DNA from: a virus
Reading direction: 5' to 3' (one strand)
DNA: 64,000 nucleotides
Virus record (IMG/VR): IMGVR_UViG_3300044981_000078
Coordinates: 1 to 64,000 of that record
Within the stretch, counting starts at the first letter, position 1. Each line of letters opens with the position of its first letter. The notes beneath the pieces were generated by a model. It did no database searches. It saw only the letters and a list, made by a program, of their open reading frames with translations, and was not told the origin of the DNA. A program made the translations under genes and the position numbers. Positions 17,266 to 63,768 of the stretch are shown one piece after another.

Positions 17266-17339
17266 TGGTCGGGGATGGAAGAATCGGACTTCCGTCTCAC
17301 CCATCCGAAGGGCGTAGATTGCCATTATCAGAATCCCCG
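17266..17339 (-). tRNA. tRNA-Pro(CGG)
   Basis: Cloverleaf, C1-G72, A73, encoded CCA; T-loop UCCGAUU. Confidence 0.75.
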
Positions 17340-17442
17340 TGACACCGCCACTTTCCGCTCGCTAATGACCCCTTGAGCCTTCGGACGATGGGGGACCGTT
17401 GTTCTCGGGAACGATTGCCGCCAATTATTAAAATTGGTAAAC

Positions 17443-17530
17443 TGGTCGGGGTACGGTGACTCGAACACCGAAGGTCTCTCGACACCGGTTTCCAAAACCG
17501 GACTGCTTCCATTTACAGAGCTATACCCCG
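17443..17530 (-). tRNA. tRNA-Pro(TGG), long variable arm
   Basis: CCGGU-UUUGGAA-ACCGG; CCA. Confidence 0.85.
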
Positions 17531-17536
17531 TTAAAC

Positions 17537-17908
17537 TTATTGTCGTGCTGACAAAAGAGTTGTATGATCCATACGCTCACCACCAGACTTTTGTTGCTGC
17601 GGCTTCGTTGGCTCATGCGATTGATCTCCGCCATATTCGTCCAATAGACTCGGCGGAAGAATCAAAATTTTTTTACCGTCTGTGCTGTGTCCTGCGTAAA
17701 CCCCGGGCTCTACTCCGGCTGGTGCGGCCACAAAAATCTGTGTGCCATCGGGAACGACTAGTGGTACTAACGCTCCGGTCGCCGGGTCTGCTACCATAAC
17801 ATGCGGTATTACTACAGATCGTACTCCGACTTTCTTTCCGACAAAGAAACAACTGACAGCGACAGTCAATCCGAGAACAAAAGCCAACGTTGAAGTAATT
17901 ACGCTCAT
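17537..17908 (-). CDS. Hypothetical membrane-anchored protein
   Basis: GGAG SD; N-terminal TM helix. Confidence 0.5.
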   Translation of the reverse strand: MSVITSTLAFVLGLTVAVSCFFVGKKVGVRSVVIPHVMVADPATGALVPLVVPDGTQIFVAAPAGVEPGVYAGHSTDGKKILILPPSLLDEYGGDQSHEPTKPQQQKSGGERMDHTTLLSARQ

Positions 17909-17988
17909 AAATCTCCCGGGACAGAGCACAATTATCGTCGCTCAAGTTCGCTGCGGTGAACTTAATCCTCTGCTCGACGTTACAAACT

Positions 17989-18063
17989 TGGATGCGCGAA
18001 CTGGATTCGAACCAGTATAAACAGGGTCAGGGCCTGTTGGACTGCCAATTGTCCGATCACGCA
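17989..18063 (-). tRNA. tRNA-Gln(CTG)
   Basis: ACAGG-CCCUGAC-CCUGU (C33); CCA. Confidence 0.85.
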
Positions 18064-18071
18064 ATTGAAAC

Positions 18072-18148
18072 TGGTTGGCCTCGAAGGATTCAAACCTTCA
18101 GTCGCATCGGTTCAAAGCCGAGCATGTTATCAATTACACCAGAGGCCA
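18072..18148 (-). tRNA. tRNA-Gln(TTG)
   Basis: Loop CUUUGAA; A19-U56. Confidence 0.85.
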
Positions 18149-18154
18149 ATAAAT

Positions 18155-18228
18155 TGGAGAGCCGGGTGAGAGTCTAACTCACCAAAGCGGGTTTGCAATC
18201 CGCCGCCTAGACGATTGGCTTCCGACTC
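18155..18228 (-). tRNA. tRNA-Cys(GCA)
   Basis: Loop UUGCAAA; U73; U19-A56. Confidence 0.85.
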
Positions 18229-18280
18229 AATAAATTGACGCAGGGACCAAGAGTTAACATTGAAATCCCTGCATAGAAAA

Positions 18281-18365
18281 TGGAGGAAGATAACGTATCG
18301 AAACGTAAGCCTCTCGGCTTGGCTGGTGTTCAAGGCCAGTTGAGCGCCCTTGCTCCCTATCTTCC
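18281..18365 (-). tRNA. tRNA-Ser(TGA), atypical acceptor/T arms
   Basis: Loop CUUGAAC; long variable arm; possible 8/4 fold. Confidence 0.7.
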
Positions 18366-18369
18366 ATAA

Positions 18370-18459
18370 TGGCGGAGGATACAGGATTTGAACCTGTACA
18401 AGCTTACGCTTGGCTTCCGCTTAGCAAGCGGACACAATACCGGGTTCTGTCAACCCTCC
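18370..18459 (-). tRNA. tRNA-Ser(GCT)
   Basis: UCCGC-UUGCUAA-GCGGA; long variable arm; G73. Confidence 0.9.
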
Positions 18460-18860
18460 AAATACTTTATAGCACTTTGCATGAATGCTAGATTATCTTC
18501 AAACGATCCTATCCCTCGGTTACAAGAACTACAAAGCAAGCCACGCACTTTTTTAGTTGAGTGACAATGATCTATAACCAGCTTTTTATCTCGTTGGCAA
18601 ATTGCACATAAGCCGTGCTGCCGTTCCTGCATCTGTTTATATTGTTCTTCCGTTATCTTATATTTTCGAGTGTAGTCTTTTACGTAATTATAAGGGCCTT
18701 GCCGTGCTTTAATGGCCTCTTTATTATTCTGGTATCTTACAGCTTCGTATTTTGACCTACAATCCTTACACTGCGGGTGTCTTCTATCTCTTCCCTTCGT
18801 GTGATAATCAAAACGCTCAATGTCTTTCTCAATGCCGCACTTAGAACACAATTTCATCAT
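18450..18860 (-). CDS. Endonuclease VII-like homing endonuclease
   Basis: CSKC..CKDC N-terminus; CAIC..IDHCH..VRGLLCSSCN. Confidence 0.85.
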   Translation of the reverse strand: MMKLCSKCGIEKDIERFDYHTKGRDRRHPQCKDCRSKYEAVRYQNNKEAIKARQGPYNYVKDYTRKYKITEEQYKQMQERQHGLCAICQRDKKLVIDHCHSTKKVRGLLCSSCNRGIGSFEDNLAFMQSAIKYLEG

Positions 18861-18862
18861 AA

Positions 18863-18910
18863 CACTCTCCCTTAAAGAGTGCCGGGAGGTGTTAAGGGCA
18901 CCTCCCGACT
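18863..18910 (-). promoter_or_regulatory. Kissing-loop SD-sequestering element, copy E
   Basis: GGGAGGUG-[CCCUUAA]-CACCUCCC ... CACUCU-[UUAAGGG]-AGAGUG, then AUG. Confidence 0.8.
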
Positions 18911-18927
18911 AATTGTACGTACAAACC

Positions 18928-19134
18928 TTATTGGTTCAATGCCTGTTTAGCTTTTTGAACCATATCTCCCTTGGCCTTCAGTTCATCACCAAGCGAAGGG
19001 GCCTTGCGTGCTTCTCGCGCCGCGCTATATGTCGGTTTCTGTGGCTGCGGCATACTCGGACTAGGAAACTTCTGTTCTGCCTCTCCGAGTACCTTCTTAG
19101 CGTTTGCTAAGGTTGTTTCAATATCTTGCGGCAT
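18928..19134 (-). CDS. Hypothetical protein
   Basis: 68-aa ORF directly after the RNase P RNA. Confidence 0.45.
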   Translation of the reverse strand: MPQDIETTLANAKKVLGEAEQKFPSPSMPQPQKPTYSAAREARKAPSLGDELKAKGDMVQKAKQALNQ

Positions 19135-19144
19135 AATTTTCGAT

Positions 19145-19444
19145 GGTGAACTTGTAAGCAGGATTCTGTTCCGTGCGTTCTTATAGAAGCACGGTGACTG
19201 CCATTCGTCTTTGCTGCCTACCCGACCTTCATCACGCTAAACAAACGTTCCGGTCCTATTTGGCATTGCTCTGGTGTGGATTATCTTCGCTCCAATGATG
19301 TAAGCGTTCGATGACTTTCTAGAATGTCACCGTTCAATTACATACGAAGGCTTACCCGTACGCTTTCGCGCCCCGCAACTTCCACGGCACCATGTTTAGA
19401 TGAGTCCTGACTTTCCTCTGTTTCCAGCGGCAGTCTAGTTCACC
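19145..19444 (-). ncRNA. rnpB: RNase P RNA (bacterial type)
   Basis: P1 GGUGAAC/GUUCACC; CR-I GAGGAAAGUCAGGAC; CR-V AACAGAAUCCUGCUUA; P2 GACUGCC/GGCAGUC; GAGCAA..CCAAAUAGG (P15 region). Confidence 0.88.
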
Positions 19445-19448
19445 AATA

Positions 19449-19525
19449 TGGACTCGCTGGCGGGACTCGAACCCGCATACATCAGTTTAGGAAACTAAGC
19501 CCCGATCCTTTCGAGGAACAGCGAG
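19449..19525 (-). tRNA. tRNA-Arg(CCT)
   Basis: Loop UUCCUAA; A20; CCA. Confidence 0.88.
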
Positions 19526-19609
19526 AAAATTTTTATCCCTTCAGGTGCGCGACCGGAGTCCGGTGCGTTTTAGTTTCGAGAGTTTCACTCTACCCCTTCG
19601 GGATAAAAC

Positions 19610-19684
19610 TGGGGGGCCGTAACGGAGTCCAACCGTTCTCTTGGAGTTAGAAGCTCCAGGTCCTATGCGATGAACGAACAGCCC
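19610..19684 (-). tRNA. tRNA-Arg(TCT)
   Basis: UGGAG-CUUCUAA-CUCCA; C19-G56. Confidence 0.85.
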
Positions 19685-19690
19685 AAAACT

Positions 19691-19765
19691 TGGCGAGAGA
19701 TGATGGATTCGAACCACCAAAAGCGCGTTTGGAGTGCGCCGGTTTGCCGTTAAGCCTAATCTCTC
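19691..19765 (-). tRNA. tRNA-Trp(CCA)
   Basis: Loop CUCCAAA; G73. Confidence 0.88.
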
Positions 19766-19772
19766 ATAAAAC

Positions 19773-19848
19773 TGGAGCGGAACATGGGATTCGAACCCAC
19801 TCGTTCAGTTTGGAAAACTGACATGCTAGCCGTTAACATCAGTCCCGC
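19773..19848 (-). tRNA. tRNA-Gly(TCC)
   Basis: Loop UUUCCAA; U73. Confidence 0.9.
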
Positions 19849-20060
19849 TTAAAATCCATAAATCCACAACTCATGATCCAGAATCGGACGAAACACATGC
19901 TTATCGCCAGGTGTCCACAGATACAATCCTAACTCAGTGGACATGATAATAAAAGCAGATTCTGAATGCACGTACATATAAATTTGTGGCACCCACCTCA
20001 CGGTCCCGGTGCCCCGGACTAGGTATTGAGGGCAACCCTCGTGCGCCTAGACGCTGTGAT

Positions 20061-20135
20061 TGGAGCGATGTGCGGGAAATCGAACCCGCGCCTATGACTT
20101 GGCAAGCCATCGGACTTCCATTATCCGAACATCGC
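20061..20135 (-). tRNA. tRNA-Gly(GCC)
   Basis: Loop UUGCCAA; U73. Confidence 0.88.
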
Positions 20136-20528
20136 CTAAAATTCAAAGTCTTTAGCAAAACGTAATCCGGTTTTTATGCTCTTAGAAGGCTCTATACGTA
20201 ATGACATTGTGCCTTTAACACACTTCTCTATAGGAACAAAATATGTCTTTCCATTGTCGGGGCAATAAACTCCGAAAGCGTCTATATCGTCTTTCGAATA
20301 ATAATTCATACCTGCTGCTGTCACACTATAAGTTCTAAATTTTACCACACCTTTTCTAATTCGTGCAGTCTTACATTGAACACGTATGAATTTTCCCTTC
20401 TCATCATCTAATAAAAGGTCATATCGAGAAGCACCGTTAAAAGGTATAAAAATTTTCTTACCCCTCAGCAGTAGCGCCGCTAAAATCATTCCTTCTGTAA
20501 CAGAACCTACTCCACTCGTATCTTTCAT
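20136..20528 (-). CDS. PD-(D/E)XK homing endonuclease (I-Ssp6803I-like)
   Basis: RYDLLLD..RVQCKT..Y..DIDAFGVYCP; likely start ATG 20528. Confidence 0.85.
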   Translation of the reverse strand: MKDTSGVGSVTEGMILAALLLRGKKIFIPFNGASRYDLLLDDEKGKFIRVQCKTARIRKGVVKFRTYSVTAAGMNYYSKDDIDAFGVYCPDNGKTYFVPIEKCVKGTMSLRIEPSKSIKTGLRFAKDFEF

Positions 20529-20532
20529 TTGT

Positions 20533-20574
20533 CTCTCCACTATAGAGTCGGAGGGGTGATAGTGGCACCCCTCC
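20533..20574 (-). promoter_or_regulatory. Kissing-loop SD-sequestering element, copy F
   Basis: GGAGGGGUG-[CCACUAU]-CACCCCUCC ... CUCU-[AUAGUGG]-AGAG, then AUG. Confidence 0.8.
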
Positions 20575-20595
20575 CAGTTGTACGTACAAAATCAA

Positions 20596-21072
20596 TTAGG
20601 CGTGATCGCCTTTGTCACCCTTGTCGCCTTTAGGTCCGGGGTCTCCACGGTCGCCTTTGTCGCCCTTTATAGAGTCACCTTTATCGCCCTTATCACCTTT
20701 GTCACCTTTTACAGAATCACCTTTATCGCCTTTAGGTCCTATTACGGTATCACCTTTATCGCCCTTAATAGAATCGCCTTTATCACCCTTTAGGCCGTGC
20801 TCTCCGTTAGTTCCTGGATCGCCCTTATCACCCTTCACAGAGTCGCCTTTGTCACCCTTAATTCCTGGAATTCCAATATCGCCGCGATCCCCCTTCGGGC
20901 CTGCGGGTCCTGTTATAGATTTACCGTCGGCTCCGTTTTTTCCAGGGGCTCCTTGAGGTCCTACCGGTCCCGCCGGACCTGCTACCGGCGCTGTCTTAAA
21001 CAGACTGTGAACTAACGCAATAACTCCGGATGCCAACCCTGCTACAGCAATATAATCCGCGTATGGAATCAT
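20596..21072 (-). CDS. Membrane-anchored collagen-like protein
   Basis: N-terminal TM helix, then G-X-Y (GDK) repeats. Confidence 0.8.
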
Positions 21073-21124
21073 CTTAGTCCCCTCAGAACTAAAACTAACA
21101 TGTGGTACAGTACTACCTCAAATG

Positions 21125-21201
21125 TGGTCGCTGTGAGTGGAATCAAACCACTTATGATGACGCTTTATGAGAGCGTTGTTCACTCGGAGAACATCACAGC
21201 G
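21125..21201 (-). tRNA. tRNA-Met/Ile2(CAT)
   Basis: ACGCU-CUCAUAA-AGCGU; A19-U56. Confidence 0.8.
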
Positions 21202-21208
21202 TTAAAAT

Positions 21209-21284
21209 TGGTTGCGGGTCTAAGAGTCGCACTTAGCTGAAATCAGTTTATGAGGCTGATGACTTCCTCGAAGTCTAACCCGCG
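21209..21284 (-). tRNA. tRNA-Met(CAT), initiator-like C1:A72 mismatch
   Basis: CGCGGGU...ACCCGCA-A-CCA; loop CUCAUAA. Confidence 0.75.
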
Positions 21285-21402
21285 ATAGAAATTTTATATT
21301 CTACGTTTCTTATTCCGAACGTAGGTAACTGAGAATGACAATTAGGACATGTAATTGCTAAATTCTCTTCTCGATTATCCCAAAACTTGCCATTCTTATG
21401 AT
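21275..21402 (-). pseudogene. C-terminal HNH endonuclease remnant
   Basis: HKNGKFWDNREENLAITCPNCHSQLPTF; N-terminus missing. Confidence 0.7.
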
Positions 21403-21416
21403 TGTACGTACAAAAA

Positions 21417-21494
21417 TGGTGGGTCTGGTGAGAGTCGAACTCACAAATTCTCCGGTCTAAACGGAGCACATATGCCATATTCTGTTACAGACCC
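21417..21494 (-). tRNA. tRNA-Leu(TAG), short variable region
   Basis: CUCCG-UUUAGAC-CGGAG; A73. Confidence 0.8.
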
Positions 21495-21499
21495 AAACT

Positions 21500-21575
21500 T
21501 GGCGGGGTTACCGGGAATCGAACCCGGATAGTGAGATTGAAAGTCTCACGAATTGACCGCTTATTCGATAACCCC
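21500..21575 (-). tRNA. tRNA-Glu(TTC)
   Basis: Loop CUUUCAA. Confidence 0.9.
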
Positions 21576-21682
21576 AAAATTGAATTCGGCCTTAGCAAAA
21601 TTTCTCAGTTACTTTTGCTTTTTCGCAACCCTCGGAGACTAGGAACTGAGATGGTCTCGACAAGGTGAAGCCGACCGAAACT

Positions 21683-21756
21683 TGGTAGCCCTGAACGGAA
21701 TCTAACCGTTGCTTTTCCCGTGAGAGGGGAATGACCTGACACTAATCGACAGGGCC
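21683..21756 (-). tRNA. tRNA-Glu(CTC)
   Basis: Loop CUCUCAC; U19-A56. Confidence 0.85.
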
Positions 21757-21763
21757 ATTAAAC

Positions 21764-21839
21764 TGGCGGCGTTGACGAGAATCGAACTCGCACCTTCGTT
21801 CGTGACAGGAACGCGCACTCACCGTTATGCTACAACGCC
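21764..21839 (-). tRNA. tRNA-Asp(GTC)
   Basis: Loop CUGUCAC; G73. Confidence 0.9.
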
Positions 21840-21901
21840 ATAAATTTTTGCCCTGACTAGTGGTAGCTAGCCGCCGATGTGGGACCACATCGTTATAACA
21901 C

Positions 21902-21976
21902 TGGAGCCGAAACCAGGAATCCAACCTGGGATTACTCATTACCAATGAGTCGTCTTAAGCACTAGACTATATCGGC
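21902..21976 (-). tRNA. tRNA-Thr(GGT)
   Basis: Loop UUGGUAA; C19-G56. Confidence 0.85.
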
Positions 21977-21982
21977 AAAACT

Positions 21983-22056
21983 TGGAGCAGCGTCTGAGAA
22001 TCTAACTCAGGTCAACGCATTACGAGTGCGTGATAATCACACTATACCAACGCTGC
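21983..22056 (-). tRNA. tRNA-Thr(CGT)
   Basis: Loop CUCGUAA; U19-A56. Confidence 0.85.
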
Positions 22057-22060
22057 AAAC

Positions 22061-23095
22061 TTACGCCGTTGCCTTTCGGCTCTTATCTCGGCGGAATATC
22101 AAATAATCAGAGTGACCGTCCCAATCTAAAACTACTGTGTCACCTGTCTTGACCTGTTCGGTTGACAGCAATCGTGACATCGGACGGACTACATACTTCT
22201 CAATCGTTCTCTTCAGGTGACGAGCGCCGTAGTTTATATCTGTGCCCTCACGAAGCAAAAACTTCTTAGCCGACTCGTGAGTACTGAAAAGAAACTGGGC
22301 CTTGTCATTATGCAAAATTCTATTCTGAACGATCTCTAGTTCGATATCCAGTATACGATAGAGATGCTCAGATGTCAAGGGATGAAATACCACCACCTTG
22401 TCCAGCCGGTTCATAAACTCAGGAGAAAACTTTCTCTTTGCTGCTTCCTGAGCTATCCTATCAATCTTGTTGTCTAACTGAGTCTCGATTTGAGGTTGCG
22501 AAAACCCCATTGAACCGTTAAACAAACTAGTAATATCTTTGGCCCCGAGATTAGAGGTCAAGAATATCATTGTCAGAGACAGATCAACTCTACGGTTGTC
22601 TCCGAGTGTCAAGGTCGCCTTGTCAAGCATACCAAGTAATAGCTGCCACAGAGAGTCTGACGCTTTCTCAATTTCATCGAATAATAGAAAGCTCAGTCTA
22701 AGACCTTCTTTGTGATATGTCGCCAACGCTTCCTGGGTTATCTTCGGGTGTGTTTCCCGATGACCTAGATATCCCGGAGGTGAACCGATTAACTTTGCTA
22801 TCTCGTGACTGTGTTGAAACTCAGCACAGTCTATCTTAATGGCTGCACGCGGGTCACCAAATAAAACTTCCGCTGTCGCTTCAACTACTCTGGTCTTGCC
22901 AATTCCTGTCGGCCCAAGAAATAAAAAGTTACTTATCGGACGACCGGCGGGGCACAGCCCTGCCCGAAACATTTCAAAGGAGTCTACGATAGCCTCAACC
23001 GCATCTTGCTGGCCGATTATCTTCTCTTCTAAAGAAGACTGAAAACCGATCAGTTCTCGGCTCTTACGGGTCGGGTCCAAATCTGACATAGTCAT
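22061..23095 (-). CDS. Single-ring ClpA/ClpB-family AAA+ ATPase (D2 module only)
   Basis: IIGQ..GPTGIGKT, KLIGSPPGYLG, LFDEIEKA, FSPEFMNRLD, YGARHLKR. Confidence 0.9.
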   Translation of the reverse strand: MTMSDLDPTRKSRELIGFQSSLEEKIIGQQDAVEAIVDSFEMFRAGLCPAGRPISNFLFLGPTGIGKTRVVEATAEVLFGDPRAAIKIDCAEFQHSHEIAKLIGSPPGYLGHRETHPKITQEALATYHKEGLRLSFLLFDEIEKASDSLWQLLLGMLDKATLTLGDNRRVDLSLTMIFLTSNLGAKDITSLFNGSMGFSQPQIETQLDNKIDRIAQEAAKRKFSPEFMNRLDKVVVFHPLTSEHLYRILDIELEIVQNRILHNDKAQFLFSTHESAKKFLLREGTDINYGARHLKRTIEKYVVRPMSRLLSTEQVKTGDTVVLDWDGHSDYLIFRRDKSRKATA

Positions 23096-23121
23096 AGAAC
23101 CCCCGAACAACTGTAACAAAC

Positions 23122-23196
23122 TGGAGCACGATAAAGGTTTCGAACCTTTTCCCGCTGTTTACAAGACAGCAGTTCTACCAATTAAACTAATCGTGC
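23122..23196 (-). tRNA. tRNA-Thr(TGT)
   Basis: Loop CUUGUAA. Confidence 0.9.
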
Positions 23197-23199
23197 ATA

Positions 23200-23280
23200 G
23201 CGAGGAATCAAGCGACCTAGGGTATGGGCTTGCGCCCGCTCTATTTACAGTAGAAGTATCCCAGGTCTAACGTCACTCGC
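23200..23280 (-). ncRNA. Orphan Y RNA-like ncRNA
   Basis: GCGAGUGACGUUAGA..GGGAUACUUCU..UCGCUUGAU..CUCGC aligns end to end with the RNA at 57988-58073 upstream of Ro60. Confidence 0.75.
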
Positions 23281-23285
23281 GAAAC

Positions 23286-23372
23286 TGGCTGGGGCGGTAG
23301 GCATCGAACCTACAGGTGTCTTGCGACTCTCGGGTAACAGCCGAGTGGGTTTACCAATTCCCCTACGCCCCA
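23286..23372 (-). tRNA. tRNA-Asn(GTT), long variable arm
   Basis: CUCGG-CUGUUAC-CCGAG; G73. Confidence 0.85.
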
Positions 23373-23482
23373 ATATTTAAAATGTTTACCCGGCTATCAC
23401 GGGTACCGCTTGGGTTCCACTTGCGACCTACCCACAACTGGTAGCCGCCTTTTGTTGTGTTACGCTTCGCACTATAACATAC

Positions 23483-23557
23483 TGGAAGGCAACCGGGGAA
23501 TCCAACCCCGACTTTCGCGTTCGAAGCGCGATGTCTTGTGCATTCGACTAGTCGCCC
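23483..23557 (-). tRNA. tRNA-Arg(TCG)
   Basis: Loop CUUCGAA; C19-G56; A20. Confidence 0.85.
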
Positions 23558-23564
23558 ATAAATC

Positions 23565-23640
23565 TGGAGGGCCGTAAGAGAATCGAACTCTTTTCTCGAC
23601 GTTCGTAGCGTCGTGTCCTATTCCGGTGAACGAACAGCCC
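23565..23640 (-). tRNA. tRNA-Arg(ACG)
   Basis: Loop CUACGAA. Confidence 0.88.
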
Positions 23641-23649
23641 ATTAAAACT

Positions 23650-23725
23650 TGGTAGCCAACTTCGGACTCGAACCGAAAACCCCTTGTTTGTAGGACAAGT
23701 GCTCTTGCCATTGAGCTAGTCGGCT
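23650..23725 (-). tRNA. tRNA-Val(TAC)
   Basis: Loop CCUACAA (C33). Confidence 0.88.
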
Positions 23726-23912
23726 AAACTTTTGCGGGACGGTGGAGCTTCGCTCACTTCGCCGGACTGATTACCACACATAGCCATCGTTTACCGATGC
23801 TGACGCCCGCATTAATAGTCTGGGTGCCCGGGGATTCTCACCCCGCCGTCACGACAGTACTGACTAGTCTTCCTGCCGGACTGGTAACGAATTACCGCGT
23901 ACCCGTAAAACT

Positions 23913-23986
23913 TGGTGGACCGTACATGAATCGAACATGCACCGCTTCCTTGCAAGGGAAACAGACTCCCGTTATCCTAACGGCCC
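23913..23986 (-). tRNA. tRNA-Ala(TGC)
   Basis: G3:U70; UGC anticodon. Confidence 0.9.
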
Positions 23987-24179
23987 AAAATTACTTCTTA
24001 TGAAAAACTGTCTTATACAAACTGTAATTAAACTTATATTCAGCGAATGATGTTGCTAATCCGGCACCGAACAGAACTGCTAGTACCGCTACTGCTTTCA
24101 GAATTAGCATACTGTCCCCTTGAAATATTCGCGGCCTGTTCCCAGAACTAGTCAACCGTATCGAACGGCGAGGCGAAAT

Positions 24180-24255
24180 TGGTTGTGGTCACAGGAATCG
24201 AACCTGTTGCCTCTCGCCTATCAAGCGAGCGCCCATCCTTATGTGCTTGACCACA
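24180..24255 (-). tRNA. tRNA-Ile(GAT)
   Basis: CUCGC-UUGAUAG-GCGAG. Confidence 0.85.
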
Positions 24256-24374
24256 ATAAAACTTTTCTTCAAGAAGCCACCGTGCCAATGCACCAATACT
24301 ATTCGGTTGCTTCGCGAGTTTTTCTAGCTCTTATTTTGTACAGAGCTTTTGTGATGGTTCATAACTCATAAAAC

Positions 24375-24464
24375 TGGAGGAGTAGGCTGGATTCGAACCA
24401 GCAGTGTTCGCAAGGAACTCCGCTTTTACAGAGCGGTGGGATTACCGGATATCCCGTCTACTCC
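24375..24464 (-). tRNA. tRNA-Tyr(GTA)
   Basis: Loop CUGUAAA; long variable arm. Confidence 0.88.
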
Positions 24465-24470
24465 AAAACT

Positions 24471-24546
24471 TGGTAGGTCCGGTGGGAGTCCAACCCACAA
24501 CGTTTCGATTAAAAGTCGAGTGCTCTGGCAATTGAGCTACGAACCT
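24471..24546 (-). tRNA. tRNA-Lys(TTT)
   Basis: Loop CUUUUAA; C19-G56. Confidence 0.88.
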
Positions 24547-24551
24547 AAATA

Positions 24552-24627
24552 TGGTGACTCCGGTGGAAGTCCAATCCACAACCTATCGGGTAAGAGCCGA
24601 GTGCTCTGGCAATTGAGCTACGAAGTC
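24552..24627 (-). tRNA. tRNA-Lys(CTT)
   Basis: Loop CUCUUAC; C19-G56. Confidence 0.85.
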
Positions 24628-24633
24628 AAAACT

Positions 24634-24725
24634 TGGTCCGCTAGACTGGATTCGAACCAGTATGCCGTTTTATAGCGGCGGAGGGTTTTAAGTCCTCAGT
24701 GTCTCGCCTGTTCCACCACTAGCGG
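24634..24725 (-). tRNA. tRNA-Leu(TAA)
   Basis: Loop CUUAAAA; long variable arm. Confidence 0.88.
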
Positions 24726-24732
24726 ATAAAAT

Positions 24733-24826
24733 TGGTATTCCCGAGAGGACTCGAACCTCTATCTTGCTGGAATCCCCAGCGACCAAGGTATAAGCTTGGG
24801 GCTCTAACCAATTGAGCTACGGGAAT
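24733..24826 (-). tRNA. tRNA-Ile(TAT), long variable arm
   Basis: CCAAG-CUUAUAC-CUUGG. Confidence 0.85.
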
Positions 24827-24828
24827 AT

Positions 24829-24913
24829 TGGTGCGAAAGAGGGGAGTCCAACCCCTACGGTTTTACCCGGCGGTTTTTGAGACCGCTGCGTCTGGCAATT
24901 CCGCCACTCTCGC
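24829..24913 (-). tRNA. tRNA-Leu(CAA)
   Basis: Loop CUCAAAA; C19-G56. Confidence 0.88.
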
Positions 24914-24984
24914 ATAATATTTGGGACACTTAAGTCCCAGGTTGGTCTTCACTCCCTCGCGGGCGAAGCTTACCAAACCTAAAC

Positions 24985-25058
24985 TGGTCCTGGCTGTCCG
25001 AGTCGGACGGACACGGCTCGTTCTTCAGACGAGAATGCGACCCCTACATCAAACCAGG
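24985..25058 (-). tRNA. tRNA-Phe(GAA)
   Basis: CUCGU-CUGAAGA-ACGAG; T-loop UCCGACU. Confidence 0.8.
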
Positions 25059-25128
25059 ATAATCTTTCGGGCTTTTGTTGGCGGGAGCCCTGCAACCCGA
25101 CTTAGTGACTTTATATTTAACTTTTAAC

Positions 25129-25157
25129 ACTCTAGCACAGTTCTGAAAACCTGTCAA
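25129..25157 (-). promoter_or_regulatory. Sigma70-type promoter pointing into the tRNA array
   Basis: TTGACA-17 nt-TAGAGT with extended TG. Confidence 0.7.
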
Positions 25158-25257
25158 GCTTTTATTTCAAAAATCTTTTGAGGCTTTCATAGTTTGTCGG
25201 TAGCCTCTAACCGGACATCTCCATCCTACTTGGGATAGGACCAGTCGGACGGGAACT

Positions 25258-25333
25258 TGGGGCGAAAGATCAGACTCGAACTGACATTCTCCGATTCACA
25301 GTCGGATGTCCTTACCTTTGGACGACAATCGCC
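25258..25333 (-). tRNA. tRNA-His(GTG)
   Basis: Encoded G-1 and C73; loop CUGUGAA. Confidence 0.88.
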
Positions 25334-29628: not shown

Positions 29629-31165
29629 GGAATTATATAGATAACTCCCGCAAGTAAACAAGGGACTTTAAGTGCCGTGTTTACGTTAAAAATCTTTGCC
29701 CGATTCGCAGAATGTACTTGACTACCTTACGGTAGTTATGTATATTGTGAGCATGGAGGCAGCGCACATGATAAACTCTTTTGCACCTCGGGATGGGAAA
29801 TGCGAAGACTGTGGCGAGACTCGTTCGCTAAAGGATGGCCTGTGCCACGAATGCACGCAGGCTGAGATTGATGCCAGCAATTGCGCAGAGTGCAATCTTA
29901 CCCAGTCCGCTTGTGTCTGCGAAGGCGGCCCTTGGATTCCGGGCGGGTATCGCCTATGAGCCGCTCAACGATCAGCACGTTCAAACTTTTTGAACTGTTC
30001 CCACACGAGCCTTCCGCTCGGAAGTATCTGGAAGGCCGTCTCTGGCCGAATGGCGTTACCTGTCCCGAGTGCAAGTCCAAAGAGCGGATTACGGCGCGCA
30101 AGGATGGCTTTTACCGATGCAACGCCTGCAAACTGGACTTCACGGTGCGAACCAAGACAATTTTCGAGCGTTCGCACGTACCGCTTCACAAGTGGCTGTA
30201 TGCCATGTATTTGCTTGTGACAGCCCGCAAGGGCATCTCTAGCCTACAGTTGGGCAAAGAGATAGGTATTACTCAGAAATCGGCGTGGTTCGTCCTACAC
30301 AGGCTCCGTGAGGCTTGCGGAACTAAATTGGAGTTGCTTCAAGGAACCGTCGAAGTAGATGAGACATTCTTCGGCGGCGAGGAAAACAATCGGCACATGT
30401 ACGACCGCATCCACAAACCAAGGGAACGCACTGAAAAGACTATCGTAGTCGGGATGCGCCAACGCGGAGGGCACACGGTCGCCAAGATCGTACCTAGCAC
30501 TGGCGGGTTAGCCCTTCGCGGCGCGATTCATGAGAATGTTGCGCCTGGTACGCGAATCCTGTCCGATGACTACGGCAGCTATACCGCGCTTCCGAAAGAG
30601 GGCTTCCAGCACGATTCAGTGAAGCATGTTACAGGCGAATACGTGCGTGGCGATGTCCACACGAACGGGATTGAATCGGTTTGGGCTGTTATGAAGCGCG
30701 GGATGCACGGCGTCTACCATCACGCCGACAAGAAGCATATGGGCAGATACGTGAACGAATTTACCTTCCGACTAAACCAAGGCAATGTCTCTCGCCATAC
30801 TACGGAACGGCTGGATAGTTTCGTTGACGCCGTAGCAGGCAAGCGATTGACTTTCTCAAGGCTGACCGCATGAGAAAGGGAAGCAAGCGTTGTACAGGTT
30901 TGGTTTGGCATGAACCTAAAGTCTGTGTACGCGGGTATTGGAGGCAATGCGGAAATGAAGCAACCCATCAAGTCGGAGGAAAATACGGGAGATACTTTTG
31001 CGACAGTTGCAGACCCCGTACAGATTCTCAATCAGACAGCGGATTTAGTGTTGATGTATCGTCCGAAAATAAAAACGAAGGCTGCAAAGCGTAGAGTACG
31101 AAGGAATAAGCGTGCGGCGAAGGATAAGGACAAGCCGAAATCAAGGTAGTCAACTATATAATTCC
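29629..31165 (+). mobile_element. IS1595-family element with passenger ORFs
   Basis: Terminal inverted repeats GGAATTATATAGATAACTCC / GGTAGTCAACTATATAATTCC; A-rich flanks. Confidence 0.85.
29956..30873 (+). CDS. IS1595-family transposase
   Basis: Zn ribbon CPEC..CNAC; VEVDETF, SDD, HTNGIESVW, YVNEFTFR. Confidence 0.92.
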   Translation: MSRSTISTFKLFELFPHEPSARKYLEGRLWPNGVTCPECKSKERITARKDGFYRCNACKLDFTVRTKTIFERSHVPLHKWLYAMYLLVTARKGISSLQLGKEIGITQKSAWFVLHRLREACGTKLELLQGTVEVDETFFGGEENNRHMYDRIHKPRERTEKTIVVGMRQRGGHTVAKIVPSTGGLALRGAIHENVAPGTRILSDDYGSYTALPKEGFQHDSVKHVTGEYVRGDVHTNGIESVWAVMKRGMHGVYHHADKKHMGRYVNEFTFRLNQGNVSRHTTERLDSFVDAVAGKRLTFSRLTA

Positions 31166-58091: not shown

Positions 58092-59495
58092 ATGAAAACA
58101 AATACGAAGACCTTACCGACTCCGAAGTTCACACACGAGGGCGCTCGTGCGTACAATACGACTGCCGAACAGGAACTGCGCCGGTCAGTTATGGCCTGCA
58201 TGCTGTGGGAGGACACCTTCTATGAAGATGGTGTGGATATCGCTGATCGTGTCAGTTCGCTCGTAGCCAAGGTCGCTCCGGAGAAAGTTTCCGAGATCGC
58301 AATCGAGGCCCGGGTCAAGCAGAAGCTGCGTCATGTGCCTCTGTTTCTCGCTGTAGCGATGGCAAAGCTGCCGACTCACAAGCATGTTGTAGCGGATACT
58401 GTCGCTGAGATCATCCAGCGCCCGGACGAGCTTGCAGAGATTCTCGCTATCTATTCTAAGGACCGTACCGGAAGCAAGAAGCTGAACAAGCTGTCAAAGC
58501 AGCTTCAATACGGTATCGCTCGTGCGTTCACAAAGTTCAACGAATACAGCTTGGCAAAGTATAATCAGGACAAGGATGTCAAGCTCCGCGACGTTCTATT
58601 TTTGACTCACCCTACACCGGTAGACGACGCTCAGGCCGATCTGTGGAAGCGACTGATTGATGGAAAGTTGGACACCCCGGACACCTGGGAGGTCGCAATA
58701 TCTGCTGCGAAGGGCAACAAGGACCTGACCCGCGACACCTGGGACCGTCTGTTGAAAGAGGGCAAGCTGGGCGCACTGGCGCTCCTTCGCAATTTGCGAA
58801 ATATGGATGAAGCCGGGGTACACACCGATCTTATCCGTAATTCACTCTTAAACGCCAATACCGAACGCGTACTCCCGTTTCGTTTTGTTGCAGCCGCACA
58901 CGCCGCCCCGAAGTTTGAGGGCGAACTGGACCAATTACTTATCAAAACATCCGAAAAGCTCCCTAAGCTTTCGGGAAAAACTATCCTGATTGTTGACGTT
59001 TCCGGATCGATGTACAGAGCCGGAAATATCAGCAAGCGATCAGATATGACCAGGTTGGAGGCAGCCGGAGCGCTGGCGGCTATCGCTCGCGAGTCTTGTG
59101 AAAGTGTTGCAATCTACGCGACCGCAGGCGACGATTACGCTCGCAAGCATAAGACCGGTCTTGTTCCCGCACGCCGAGGAATGGCGTTAATTGAGAAATT
59201 TACAGCGCGTGGATTCGTTTTAGAGTTAGGCGGAGGGGGAATTTTCTTGAAGCAGGTCCTTGACTATGTCTACGAGAAGGAAAAGACAGCCGACCGAATC
59301 ATTGTATTCACAGACGAACAGGATTGTGACTTGAAGTGCAATCCGGCAACCGCCAACGCTTTCGGAAAGCGTAATTACCTGGTCAACATCTCAAACGAGC
59401 GAAACGGTATCGGCTATAAGCCGAACTGGATTCATATCGATGGGTTCTCGGAGGCTATCCTTCAATACATTGCAGCAACGGAGCAGAATGGTTAA
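58092..59495 (+). CDS. rsr: Ro60/Rsr (TROVE + vWA) RNA-binding protein
   Basis: WEDTFYEDG, QRPDEL, TWEV, ALLRNLRN, DVSGSM, FTDEQ. Confidence 0.92.
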   Translation: MKTNTKTLPTPKFTHEGARAYNTTAEQELRRSVMACMLWEDTFYEDGVDIADRVSSLVAKVAPEKVSEIAIEARVKQKLRHVPLFLAVAMAKLPTHKHVVADTVAEIIQRPDELAEILAIYSKDRTGSKKLNKLSKQLQYGIARAFTKFNEYSLAKYNQDKDVKLRDVLFLTHPTPVDDAQADLWKRLIDGKLDTPDTWEVAISAAKGNKDLTRDTWDRLLKEGKLGALALLRNLRNMDEAGVHTDLIRNSLLNANTERVLPFRFVAAAHAAPKFEGELDQLLIKTSEKLPKLSGKTILIVDVSGSMYRAGNISKRSDMTRLEAAGALAAIARESCESVAIYATAGDDYARKHKTGLVPARRGMALIEKFTARGFVLELGGGGIFLKQVLDYVYEKEKTADRIIVFTDEQDCDLKCNPATANAFGKRNYLVNISNERNGIGYKPNWIHIDGFSEAILQYIAATEQNG

Positions 59496-62620: not shown

Positions 62621-62647
62621 CTAACCCAAATTTGGTAGTATTTGGGT

Positions 62648-63574
62648 ATGAGCAAAAGCACAGTGAGCACCTTCCAACTGTTCGAGAAGTGGCCGACTGA
62701 AGAGTCCGCAAGACTCTACATTGAGAAGCGACTATGGTCGAACGGCCCTGTATGCCCACGCTGTAAGGCTACAGAGCGCATTACGGCCCGCAAAGGCGGC
62801 TTCTACCGTTGTAACCCATGTAAATGGGACTTCACGGTTAGAACAGGCACTATCTTCGGTCGTTCGCACGTCCCGCTGCATAAGTGGTTGTACGCAATGT
62901 ACTTGCTTGTGACTTCGCGGAAGGGAATTTCATCTCTGCAAATGTCTAAAGAAATTGGAGTTAAGCAGCATACCGCGTGGTTCATATTACAGCGGTTGCG
63001 AGAAGCCTGCGGCGCGGAAGTCAAGATGCTTCAAGGGATTGTCGAAGTGGACGAAACCTTTATTACAGGCAAAGAACAGAATCGCCATATGTATGACCGT
63101 ATCCATGACCCCCGAGAGCGATCAGAGAAGGCAATCGTAGTCGGGATGCGAGAACGTGGCGGGAATACCGTTGCGACGGTAGTTCAGAGCACGGGCGGTT
63201 TGGCTCTCCGCGCCGAAATACACAAGCATGTGGTATCAGGCACTAGAGTTATGACCGACGATTACGGCAGTTACACGGCGCTCCCGAGAGAAGGGTTCAA
63301 GCACGAGAGCGTAAAGCATGTCACAGGAGAATATGTCCGTGGCGACGTTCACACTAATTCAATTGAATCAGTATGGGCTGTTCTAAAGCGCGGGGTACAC
63401 GGGACGTTTCACCATGTCAGCAAGAAACACCTGAATCGATATGTTTCCGAGTTTACTTTTCGTCTAAATGACGGTAAGGTTCAGCGCCACACTCTTGATA
63501 GACTCGACAGTCTGATATCCAATGTGGTAGGGAAACGAGTTACATACGAAGAAATAATCTCAGAAAAGTCTTGA
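62648..63574 (+). CDS. IS1595-family transposase, second diverged copy
   Basis: VEVDETF, TDD, HTNSIESVW, YVSEFTFR; visibly homologous to 29956-30873. Confidence 0.92.
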   Translation: MSKSTVSTFQLFEKWPTEESARLYIEKRLWSNGPVCPRCKATERITARKGGFYRCNPCKWDFTVRTGTIFGRSHVPLHKWLYAMYLLVTSRKGISSLQMSKEIGVKQHTAWFILQRLREACGAEVKMLQGIVEVDETFITGKEQNRHMYDRIHDPRERSEKAIVVGMRERGGNTVATVVQSTGGLALRAEIHKHVVSGTRVMTDDYGSYTALPREGFKHESVKHVTGEYVRGDVHTNSIESVWAVLKRGVHGTFHHVSKKHLNRYVSEFTFRLNDGKVQRHTLDRLDSLISNVVGKRVTYEEIISEKS

Positions 63575-63600: not shown

Positions 63601-63692
63601 GTTCTGGTAGCAAGTTGAATGGTGGATTCGTCGCCCACTGCAAATCGACGATAAGGCAGACGTAAAAGAAAGCAAACCCGTCGGCTACATAT

Positions 63693-63768
63693 GCGGAGGT
63701 AGTTTAATGGTAGAACGATCTGTTAACCAACAGGTAGGTGGCGGTTCAAATCCGACCTCTCCGCTCCA
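63693..63768 (+). tRNA. tRNA-Gly-like gene with 8-nt anticodon loop
   Basis: GCGGAGG acceptor, U73-CCA, canonical D-arm, AUCUG-UUAACCAA-CAGGU, bulged T stem. Confidence 0.6.

Follow-up and report, generated by a model that had tools for sequence, protein, structure and literature searches.

A phage-borne RNase P RNA gene with a rebuilt specificity domain in a large tRNA array

An RNase P RNA gene among phage tRNAs

The window analysed here, a 64,000-nucleotide (nt) stretch of DNA comprising positions 1 to 64,000 of IMG/VR virus record IMGVR_UViG_3300044981_000078, bears what, by its sequence, is a genuine RNase P RNA gene of a phage. A cmscan search of the whole window against 4227 Rfam families returned a single match to RF00010 (bacterial RNase P class A), at 19139–19446 on the minus strand. 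The match scored 102.6 bits (gathering score 100; E-value 3.1e-30), spanned model positions 1–367 without truncation, and was kept over RF00011 in clan competition. No further RF00010 match was found elsewhere in the full record of 101,668 base pairs (bp). A preliminary description of the locus had placed an RNase P RNA at 19145–19444 within a tRNA array and had proposed a covariance-model search as a check. The gene does lie among 32 tRNAs, and these borders are accurate as the extent from P1 to P1; the strand, which the description left unnamed, is minus. Its start had been put 4 nt after the CCA of tRNA-Arg(CCU), in agreement with a gap of 2–4 nt, the exact value hinging on the choice of 5′ end; P1 starts at 19445.

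RNA position 1 corresponds to window position 19446, so that a window coordinate equals 19447 minus the RNA position. The conserved regions (CR), paired segments (P), loops (L) and joining segments (J) are named as in bacterial RNase P RNA. The catalytic domain and the helices leading into the specificity domain are arranged as follows:

19139–19446, minus: RNase P RNA gene (308-nt Rfam envelope; P1-to-P1 core 19144–19445), supported by covariation in 16 sequences and by RNAalifold
19437–19445 (RNA 2–10), minus: P1 5′ strand, nine bases complementary to 19144–19152
19144–19152 (RNA 295–303), minus: P1 3′ strand, from complementarity, covariation and RNAalifold
19429–19435 (RNA 12–18), minus: P2 5′ strand, pairing with 19196–19202 (RNA 245–251), from family pair counts
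19418–19427 (RNA 20–29), minus: minimal P3 of 3 bp with a GAAA tetraloop, from the window and the family alignment
19405–19418 (RNA 29–42), minus: CR-I and P4 5′ strand with bulged U37, matching the bacterial consensus
19155–19169 (RNA 278–292), minus: CR-V and P4 3′ strand, from the Rfam alignment and family pairs
RNA 43–45/176–178, minus: P5, from the alignment and pair counts
19394–19398 (RNA 49–53), minus: 5′ strand of the P6 pseudoknot, in J5/7, pairing with the L17 loop at 19238–19242 (RNA 205–209)
RNA 55–59/171–175, minus: P7, with 5/5 pairs covarying
19373–19387 (RNA 60–74), minus: P8 with the near-invariant loop region UGGAAGUUG, the hallmark of the family
19358–19372 (RNA 75–89), minus: P9 with a GNRA loop (GAAA here), 100% paired, 4/5 pairs covarying
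RNA 91–92/168–169, minus: P10, in the register given by RNAalifold
RNA 98–102/158–162, minus: P11, with 5/5 pairs covarying
19215–19271 (RNA 176–232), minus: CR-IV with P15, P16 and P17, from invariant columns and covariation
RNA 182–185/229–232, 192–195/220–223 and 199–201/211–213, minus: P15, P16 and P17, respectively, from the family alignment
19203–19214, minus: J15/2, GCAAAGACGAAU; the conserved AGACGAAUG extends into the first base of P2
19171–19194 (RNA 253–276), minus: extra P19-like hairpin between P2 and CR-V, an insert relative to the model, from the minimum free energy fold

The Rfam and family alignments retain every element of the catalytic core. The preliminary description had noted an intact catalytic domain and the CR-I and CR-V motifs, and both points hold: GAGGAAAGUC lies at 19409–19418 and ACAGAAUCCUGCUUA at 19155–19169, both on the minus strand, and the core elements are either invariant or covarying. 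The single strands of the domain (GAGGAAAGUC, GCAA, CAAAUAGG, CGGGU, AGACGAAUG and ACAGAA) fit the bacterial consensus and do not vary within the family; across the 16 sequences this holds for the GCAA of J5/15 and the CGGGU of loop L15. The active-site helix P4 (34–42/284–291) has seven pairs that are 100% paired, three of which covary, around an invariant U37; RNAalifold adds an eighth covarying pair, 42–284. Two-sided changes occur in seven of the nine P1 pairs, where the MAFFT alignment places the 3′ strand one position off for some sequences, in five of the seven P2 pairs (99% of cells paired) and in all five pairs of P6. P15 is 100% paired with 4/4 pairs covarying, and three of the four P16 pairs covary.

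Peripheral elements are more variable. P3 has either 3 bp, as here, or inserts of up to ~65 nt among relatives, and the P19-like hairpin is variable or absent. P18 is missing, its 24 model positions being aligned to 0 bases; among relatives, L053 and L109 still carry an insert at J15/2.

Selection acts on the fold of the RNA. Among the 16 distinct sequences, 93.3% of cells pair, compared with 74.0% in column shuffles (0 of 500 reached the observed value) and 32–39% in slid controls, and two-sided changes are found in 49 of 69 pairs. Without a supplied structure, RNAalifold recovered P3, P4, P7–P11, P15 and P16, with 33 of its 48 pairs compensatory. Invariant columns fall in CR-I, L8, CR-IV, L15, J15/2 and CR-V. 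A strain variant in DNA run X2 also points to constraint: 15 listed differences in 200 nt of the adjacent open reading frame (ORF) stand against 1 in ~250 nt of the RNA.

The specificity domain

The canonical CR-II and CR-III loops, which the preliminary description could not place, have no consensus match in this RNA. In the Rfam alignment, the 97 model positions of the CR-II/CR-III region are squeezed into 71 poorly matching bases. P13 and P14 are absent, and a single hairpin stands between the P11 strands. The family has a conserved core of another kind, namely a J11/12 of 1–3 nt and a conserved 8-nt sequence, CAUU[C/G]RAG, located between P12 and the 3′ strand of P11. The elements of the domain are:

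19272–19392 (RNA 55–175), minus: reduced specificity domain, with P7, P8, P9, P10, P11 and P12 only
19290–19297 (RNA 150–157), minus: T-loop-like element CAUUGGAG (UUGGA), in place of CR-II and CR-III, from family conservation
19350–19354 (RNA 93–97), minus: P10/P11 5′ junction UAAGC; C97 is the proposed partner of G154
19298–19343 (RNA 104–149), minus: P12 hairpin, variable, absent in relative L074

In all correctly anchored family members, the central five bases of the element are UUCGA, UUCAA or UUGGA, and the stretch leading from P11 to it varies from 6 to 88 nt. The base that follows UAAG and the third position of the T-loop-like sequence form G-C in 12 and C-G in 7 of these members, with zero mismatches; L105 and L138 mis-anchor and are outside this count, and L105 is G-C by eye. 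The same tertiary pair in the 16-sequence alignment is GC in 10, CG in 4, AU in 1 and other in 1. P11 is constantly 5 bp long despite many sequence changes.

A T-loop motif is a five-base UNNRA sequence with a third base that pairs in Watson–Crick fashion with a distant partner; its three-dimensional hallmarks are a reverse-Hoogsteen 1–5 pair and intercalation. In the elbow of tRNA, C56 of the T-loop pairs with G19. The CAUU[C/G]RAG core reads like a tRNA T-loop, and we infer a single module locked in the fashion of the elbow, because the invariant G that precedes the junction base would match tRNA G18. Such a module would form a flat surface able to stack on the elbow of the substrate. Loops L8 and L9, which in type A RNAs dock on P4 and P1, are both kept: L8 is near-invariant (of the 15 P8 positions, 11 do not vary among the 16 sequences) and every L9 is a GNRA loop. 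The specificity domain is thus probably still positioned over the active site.

In L074 (2249–2542, minus strand) P12 is wholly missing, from which we take P12 to be dispensable. L062 (212–531, plus strand) has the phage-type P8, yet carries canonical-looking CR-II and CR-III sequences (ACAGUGACGAA ... GUGAAAC). Because it keeps these, L062 looks less derived and may represent an intermediate linking the bacterial and phage specificity-domain cores.

Distribution, RNA-library contigs and genomic setting

Relatives were gathered through terminase homologues and the P8 motif and filtered with an nhmmer profile, a route by which diverged members may escape. It yielded at least 25 distinct family sequences, all within tRNA arrays, with 8–33 tRNAs per fetched stretch. 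Pattern searches differed in yield: a CR-I scan gave 4 loci, of which 1 was useful, and a more permissive P8 pattern produced at least 114, mostly chance matches that were removed with nhmmer. A copy in genome G002, at the edge of L006, was recovered by nhmmer after a fast first search had missed it. The strict P8–P9 motif occurs in 21 viral contigs, and every one of those scanned has the full RNA among 8–33 tRNAs.

The same motif occurs 5 times in 185,579 prokaryotic species genomes (one per species). Four of these matches (L133–L136) are due to chance and contain no RNase P RNA. The fifth, L137, is a full copy of 95 bits, among 20 tRNAs in 8 kb, on a 36.7-kb contig binned as an archaeon, which we read as a phage-like contig. 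The form is restricted to viruses. Against RF00010, relatives scored 104, 95 (L137), 86.1, 84.9 and 72.7 bits.

Large-terminase identity to the window phage is 62–84% in close relatives and 36–46% in nine distant carriers, and this divergence indicates that the RNA has been kept across a deep clade of ~100-kb phages. In genome G014 (C1:13491–16118) the terminase match falls in two pieces within one 923-amino-acid (aa) frame, compared with 752 aa in the window phage, which suggests that this terminase holds an insertion such as an intein. A blastn search in distant mode against 50,697 GenBank phage records gave no match to the RNA. The nearest cultured phage by terminase, Tunturiibacter phage Tunturi_3 (25% identity), has neither an RF00010 match nor a match to the nhmmer family profile, and it lacks a tRNA array, with 2 tRNA calls only, one of them with an odd anticodon. 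Among GenBank phages and this nearest terminase relative, no cultured carrier was found.

The locus is present in soil metagenomes, where DNA contigs cross both borders of the RNA gene. Three soil metatranscriptomes hold contigs that match it with 1–2 mismatches over their whole lengths of 283, 287 and 368 nt, at 19156–19438, 19147–19433 and 19146–19513. The last of these (run X6) extends into the upstream tRNA-Arg, as a precursor would. No contig of the three runs covers the flanking ORFs; the parts of 17900–20600 without RNA-library contigs are not to be read as silent. Other RNA contigs in runs X6, X8 and X9 match only the P8–P9 motif (19351–19390) and are unlike the window in their flanks, and so we attribute them to other family members. 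One of them, of 304 nt, has a depth of 71.7, far above that of the window's own form.

The virus record is 98% complete by CheckV and encodes a portal, a large terminase, a DNA polymerase, a primase/helicase, a helicase and a ribonucleotide reductase. Around the RNA gene, the following features were mapped:

17266–25332, minus: array of 32 tRNAs that holds the RNase P RNA gene; all tRNAs are on the minus strand with encoded CCA
19449–19525, minus: tRNA-Arg(CCU), immediately upstream, with its encoded CCA at 19449–19451
18370–18459, minus: tRNA-Ser(GCU), the conserved downstream neighbour in the sub-clade
18460–19138, minus: insert parting the RNA from tRNA-Ser, with a 68-aa ORF (18928–19134), a palindrome and an Endonuclease VII-like ORF (18450–18860)

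The gene order is tRNA-Arg, RNase P RNA, tRNA-Ser in the sub-clade of the window phage and tRNA-Cys, RNase P RNA, tRNA-Lys in another, and in about half of the members the downstream tRNA lies 4–13 nt from the RNA. The gap to tRNA-Ser is 680 nt here compared with 4–6 nt in L015 and L017; an insert of this size implies that tight linkage is not essential. Within it, a perfect palindrome, TTGTACGTACAA, lies at 18913–18924 between the two ORFs. The Endonuclease VII-like ORF, assigned by a PF02945 match, terminates ~10 nt into tRNA-Ser(GCU) on the minus strand, so that excision of the tRNA would take the stop codon of the ORF.

The array is further broken up by homing-endonuclease-like genes (Endonuclease VII, PD-(D/E)XK) and by a ClpX/ClpB-D2-like AAA+ ATPase gene at 22061–23119 (minus); a collagen-repeat ORF also lies within it, at 20596–21072 (minus). 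Outside the array, a 467-aa TROVE-domain protein (Ro60/Rsr-like; PF05731, 70.5 bits) is encoded at 58092–59495 (plus). Proteins with this domain usually partner with tRNA-like Y RNA. There are two IS1595/ISXO2-type transposase genes, at 29881–30873 and 62642–63574 (both plus), and ~120 nt after the second lies a tRNA-like gene (63692–63764, plus) with a 4-base anticodon call (aacc) and a score of 30.9 bits, barely over the Rfam tRNA cut-off.

Substrates, protein partner and relation to known systems

In bacteria, the GGU of L15 pairs with the 3′-CCA of tRNA. CCA is encoded by all 32 tRNAs of the array and by 473 of the 478 tRNAs beside family members, which fits the invariant L15 GGU of the phage RNA; pairing between the two is predicted. 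Position −1, just ahead of the cleavage site, is a U in 26 of the 32 tRNAs, leaders are U-rich, and spacers between abutting tRNAs measure 2–9 nt. With encoded CCA and U at −1, the RNA appears to fit an ordinary bacterial-type substrate design.

The preliminary description had suggested that the phage carries its own 5′-maturation ribozyme, possibly co-adapted to its unusual tRNAs. Homology, compensatory changes, an intact core and RNA contigs confined to the gene argue for the first part of this proposal; the second is not supported. Ten of the 32 tRNAs (18072–24913) do swap the G19-C56 pair for another Watson–Crick pair (C-G, U-A or A-U): six combine a UUGGA T-loop with 'GC' in the D-loop, two UUAGA with 'GU', and two UUUGA with 'GA'. 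Near the RNA gene, tRNA-Arg(UCU) (19610–19684) has a C19-G56 elbow, and tRNA-Trp (19691–19765) a canonical one. Across the loci that carry the RNA, swapped elbows are found in 44 of 463 tRNAs and are spread very unevenly. Six carriers (L015, L084, L137, L140, L141 and L145) carry this RNA next to tRNAs with canonical C56 throughout, which argues against co-adaptation, and the C-or-G variant of the RNA does not follow the share of swapped tRNAs.

A six-frame search for RnpA (PF00825), the protein subunit of the bacterial enzyme, found none in the genome of the window phage, nor in any of five further family genomes that are complete or nearly so, while 10 of 14 bacterial control genomes gave a match. 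This extends to the whole genome what the preliminary description had seen for the window. Without a phage RnpA, the likeliest source of the protein is the host. A PF01743 search found no phage CCA-adding enzyme.

Taken together, the sequence data point most likely to an active ribozyme, with tRNAs of the phage itself as substrates and a host protein as its partner subunit, and we hold this reading with good, though not complete, confidence. These data leave four points to inference: cleavage by the RNA, its protein partner, docking of the new element on the elbow, and the advantage to the phage. The proposed course of events is as follows. The phage RNA would descend from a bacterial type A RNase P RNA and be transcribed within the minus-strand tRNA operon. 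Its 5′ side would be released by 3′ trimming of the upstream tRNA-Arg. In relatives whose downstream tRNA sits 4–13 nt away, RNase P cleavage at the 5′ end of that tRNA would also yield the 3′ end of the ribozyme itself. The mature RNA would strip short U-rich 5′ leaders from the 32 phage pre-tRNAs, and probably from host pre-tRNAs too. Binding would follow the bacterial style, through the P4 core, with the −1 base read by J5/15 and the encoded CCA paired to the GGU of L15, except that a single T-loop-like element with its junction pair would replace the two interleaved T-loops of CR-II and CR-III. Host RnpA would be borrowed as the protein partner, and the likely benefit would be extra or guaranteed RNase P capacity during a burst of ~30 phage tRNAs.

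Several points weigh against this reading. The score of 102.6 bits is only narrowly above the Rfam cut-off of 100, and three of the first four relatives scored, plus L137, fall under it. The RNA-library data are contigs from assemblies, whose matching ends give a weak hint, DNA carry-over is possible, and the three metatranscriptome runs share year and habitat and may stem from one campaign. The T-loop reading has one covarying pair and sequence likeness as its basis. In bacterial enzymes, CR-II, CR-III, P13, P14 and P18 are important for folding and for affinity to the substrate; with these elements lost, activity could be weak or protein-dependent. With no RnpA found in six complete or near-complete family genomes, the choice of partner is a guess.

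In a first alternative, the ribozyme is real but needs no protein in vivo, or else pairs up with a phage protein not yet recognised as such, for instance the product of one of the many small ORFs of unknown function. The lack of PF00825 in six family genomes and the rebuilt specificity domain are in keeping with it, as is the size range of P3, a protein-proximal helix in bacteria, which would be odd for a conserved protein site. Yet J15/2, CR-IV and CR-V, which contact RnpA or the leader in bacteria, are invariant, and bacterial P RNAs are not known to be active without protein at cellular ionic strength. No protein gene holds a fixed place beside the RNA, whose neighbours are mostly tRNAs. 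The adjacent 68-aa ORF was weighed as a source of such a cofactor and dismissed: Pfam gives no match to it, its product is not basic, and the insert that holds it is missing from L015 and L017. We regard this alternative as unlikely.

The need of any holoenzyme to take the host protein, together with the reduced elbow-reading elements, would also suit a decoy or regulator that soaks up host RnpA or competes with the host RNase P RNA, so that host tRNA maturation is redirected or shut down. A sponge, however, needs no whole active site, and here P4 with its bulged U, GCAA, GGU, J15/2 and CR-V are invariant or covarying; moreover, the phage itself needs 5′ maturation of 32 leader-bearing tRNAs. 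Such a role is decidedly improbable.

Still less probable is that the main substrates are not tRNAs at all but phage mRNAs, tRNA-like elements or junctions between homing-endonuclease ORFs and tRNAs. ORFs of the array do abut or overlap tRNAs, as does the Endonuclease VII-like ORF that ends in tRNA-Ser, and the specificity domain is unlike the tRNA-tuned bacterial one. Against this, the RNA is found only inside large tRNA arrays, Tunturi_3 with its ~2 tRNAs has no such RNA, and the CCA-binding loop and near-universal encoded CCA point to tRNA precursors.

Finally, a functionless, decaying piece of rnpB acquired from a host by accident, or a phage contig to which host DNA was wrongly joined, might be suspected from a score barely over the cut-off and several missing helices, but hardly accords with at least 25 independent assemblies in the same tRNA-array setting, some of them genomes with direct terminal repeats, with compensatory changes that hold 93% of cells paired, with a strain variant far less changed in the RNA than in the neighbouring ORF, or with cellular genomes that lack this form except on one phage-like contig.

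A broader and more tentative proposal is one that we hold with slightly more doubt than belief. The family may constitute a virus-specific class of RNase P RNA in which an elbow-like module replaces the double T-loop, the protein is borrowed or dispensed with, and the 5′ maturation of tRNAs is privileged or host-independent.

RNase P RNA is among the few ribozymes common to all domains of life and has been regarded as a gene of cells and organelles. If phages keep a conserved and apparently expressed copy, a catalytic RNA would join the host functions known to travel with them. This raises the question of why the RNase P of the host should be insufficient when a phage expresses ~30 tRNAs. A survey of huge phages lists tRNAs and tmRNAs and no RNase P (PMC7162821), and a 2024 review of RNase P is silent on viral copies (PMC11143913). 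In the full-text literature covered, which leaves out most subscription journals, no paper was found that describes an RNase P RNA encoded by a phage. Like the tRNA arrays and tmRNA of phages, the present RNA is a host-like translation RNA in a large phage; unlike them, it would be a catalytic processing enzyme and not a substrate or rescue RNA.

Among cellular RNAs, the closest counterpart is the bacterial type A RNA (RF00010; Escherichia coli M1 RNA/rnpB, Thermotoga maritima). The full-model match brings with it P1–P5, the P4 and P6 pseudoknots, P7–P12, P15–P17, CR-I, CR-IV, CR-V, the L15 GGU, the J5/15 GCAA and a GNRA L9, and the presumed substrates likewise have encoded CCA and U at −1. 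The phage RNA differs in being virus-encoded, inside a tRNA operon and in a genome without rnpA. It is also shorter, at 308 nt compared with 367 model positions, lacks P13, P14 and P18, and has a P3 of 3 bp. CR-II and CR-III (J11/12 and J12/13) have given way to a single T-loop-like stretch of 8 nt that pairs with a junction base, the L8 loop is larger and near-invariant, and a P19-like hairpin has been added.

Type B RNAs (RF00011; Bacillus subtilis) have no P13 or P14, may carry P19, and are without P6, P16 and P17. The phage RNA resembles them in lacking P13 and P14, and the CR-II of the sister form L062 reads like the Bacillus one. It differs from type B in having covarying P6 and P16 as well as P17, and in having no P5.1, P10.1 or P15.1.

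Naturally reduced RNase P RNAs include those of Mycoplasma fermentans (no P12) and Pyrobaculum (type T, with almost no specificity domain) and the plastid and mitochondrial forms, and forms with a reduced or missing specificity domain can still cleave pre-tRNA. As in these, peripheral helices have been lost and the P4 core kept. Unlike them, the phage RNA keeps a sizeable specificity domain (P7–P12) whose conserved core has changed. Its ~25 diverged sequences thus amount to a natural experiment, in which the catalytic domain is kept and the part that would measure the tRNA elbow is rebuilt. With the less derived L062 and with L074, which has no P12, the amount of specificity domain needed and the minimal elbow-docking surface become testable, and an RNA of at most 308 nt may offer a compact scaffold for RNase P-based tools. 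The reduced cellular and organellar RNAs are each the sole RNase P RNA of their genome, whereas the phage RNA is an extra copy, brought by a virus.

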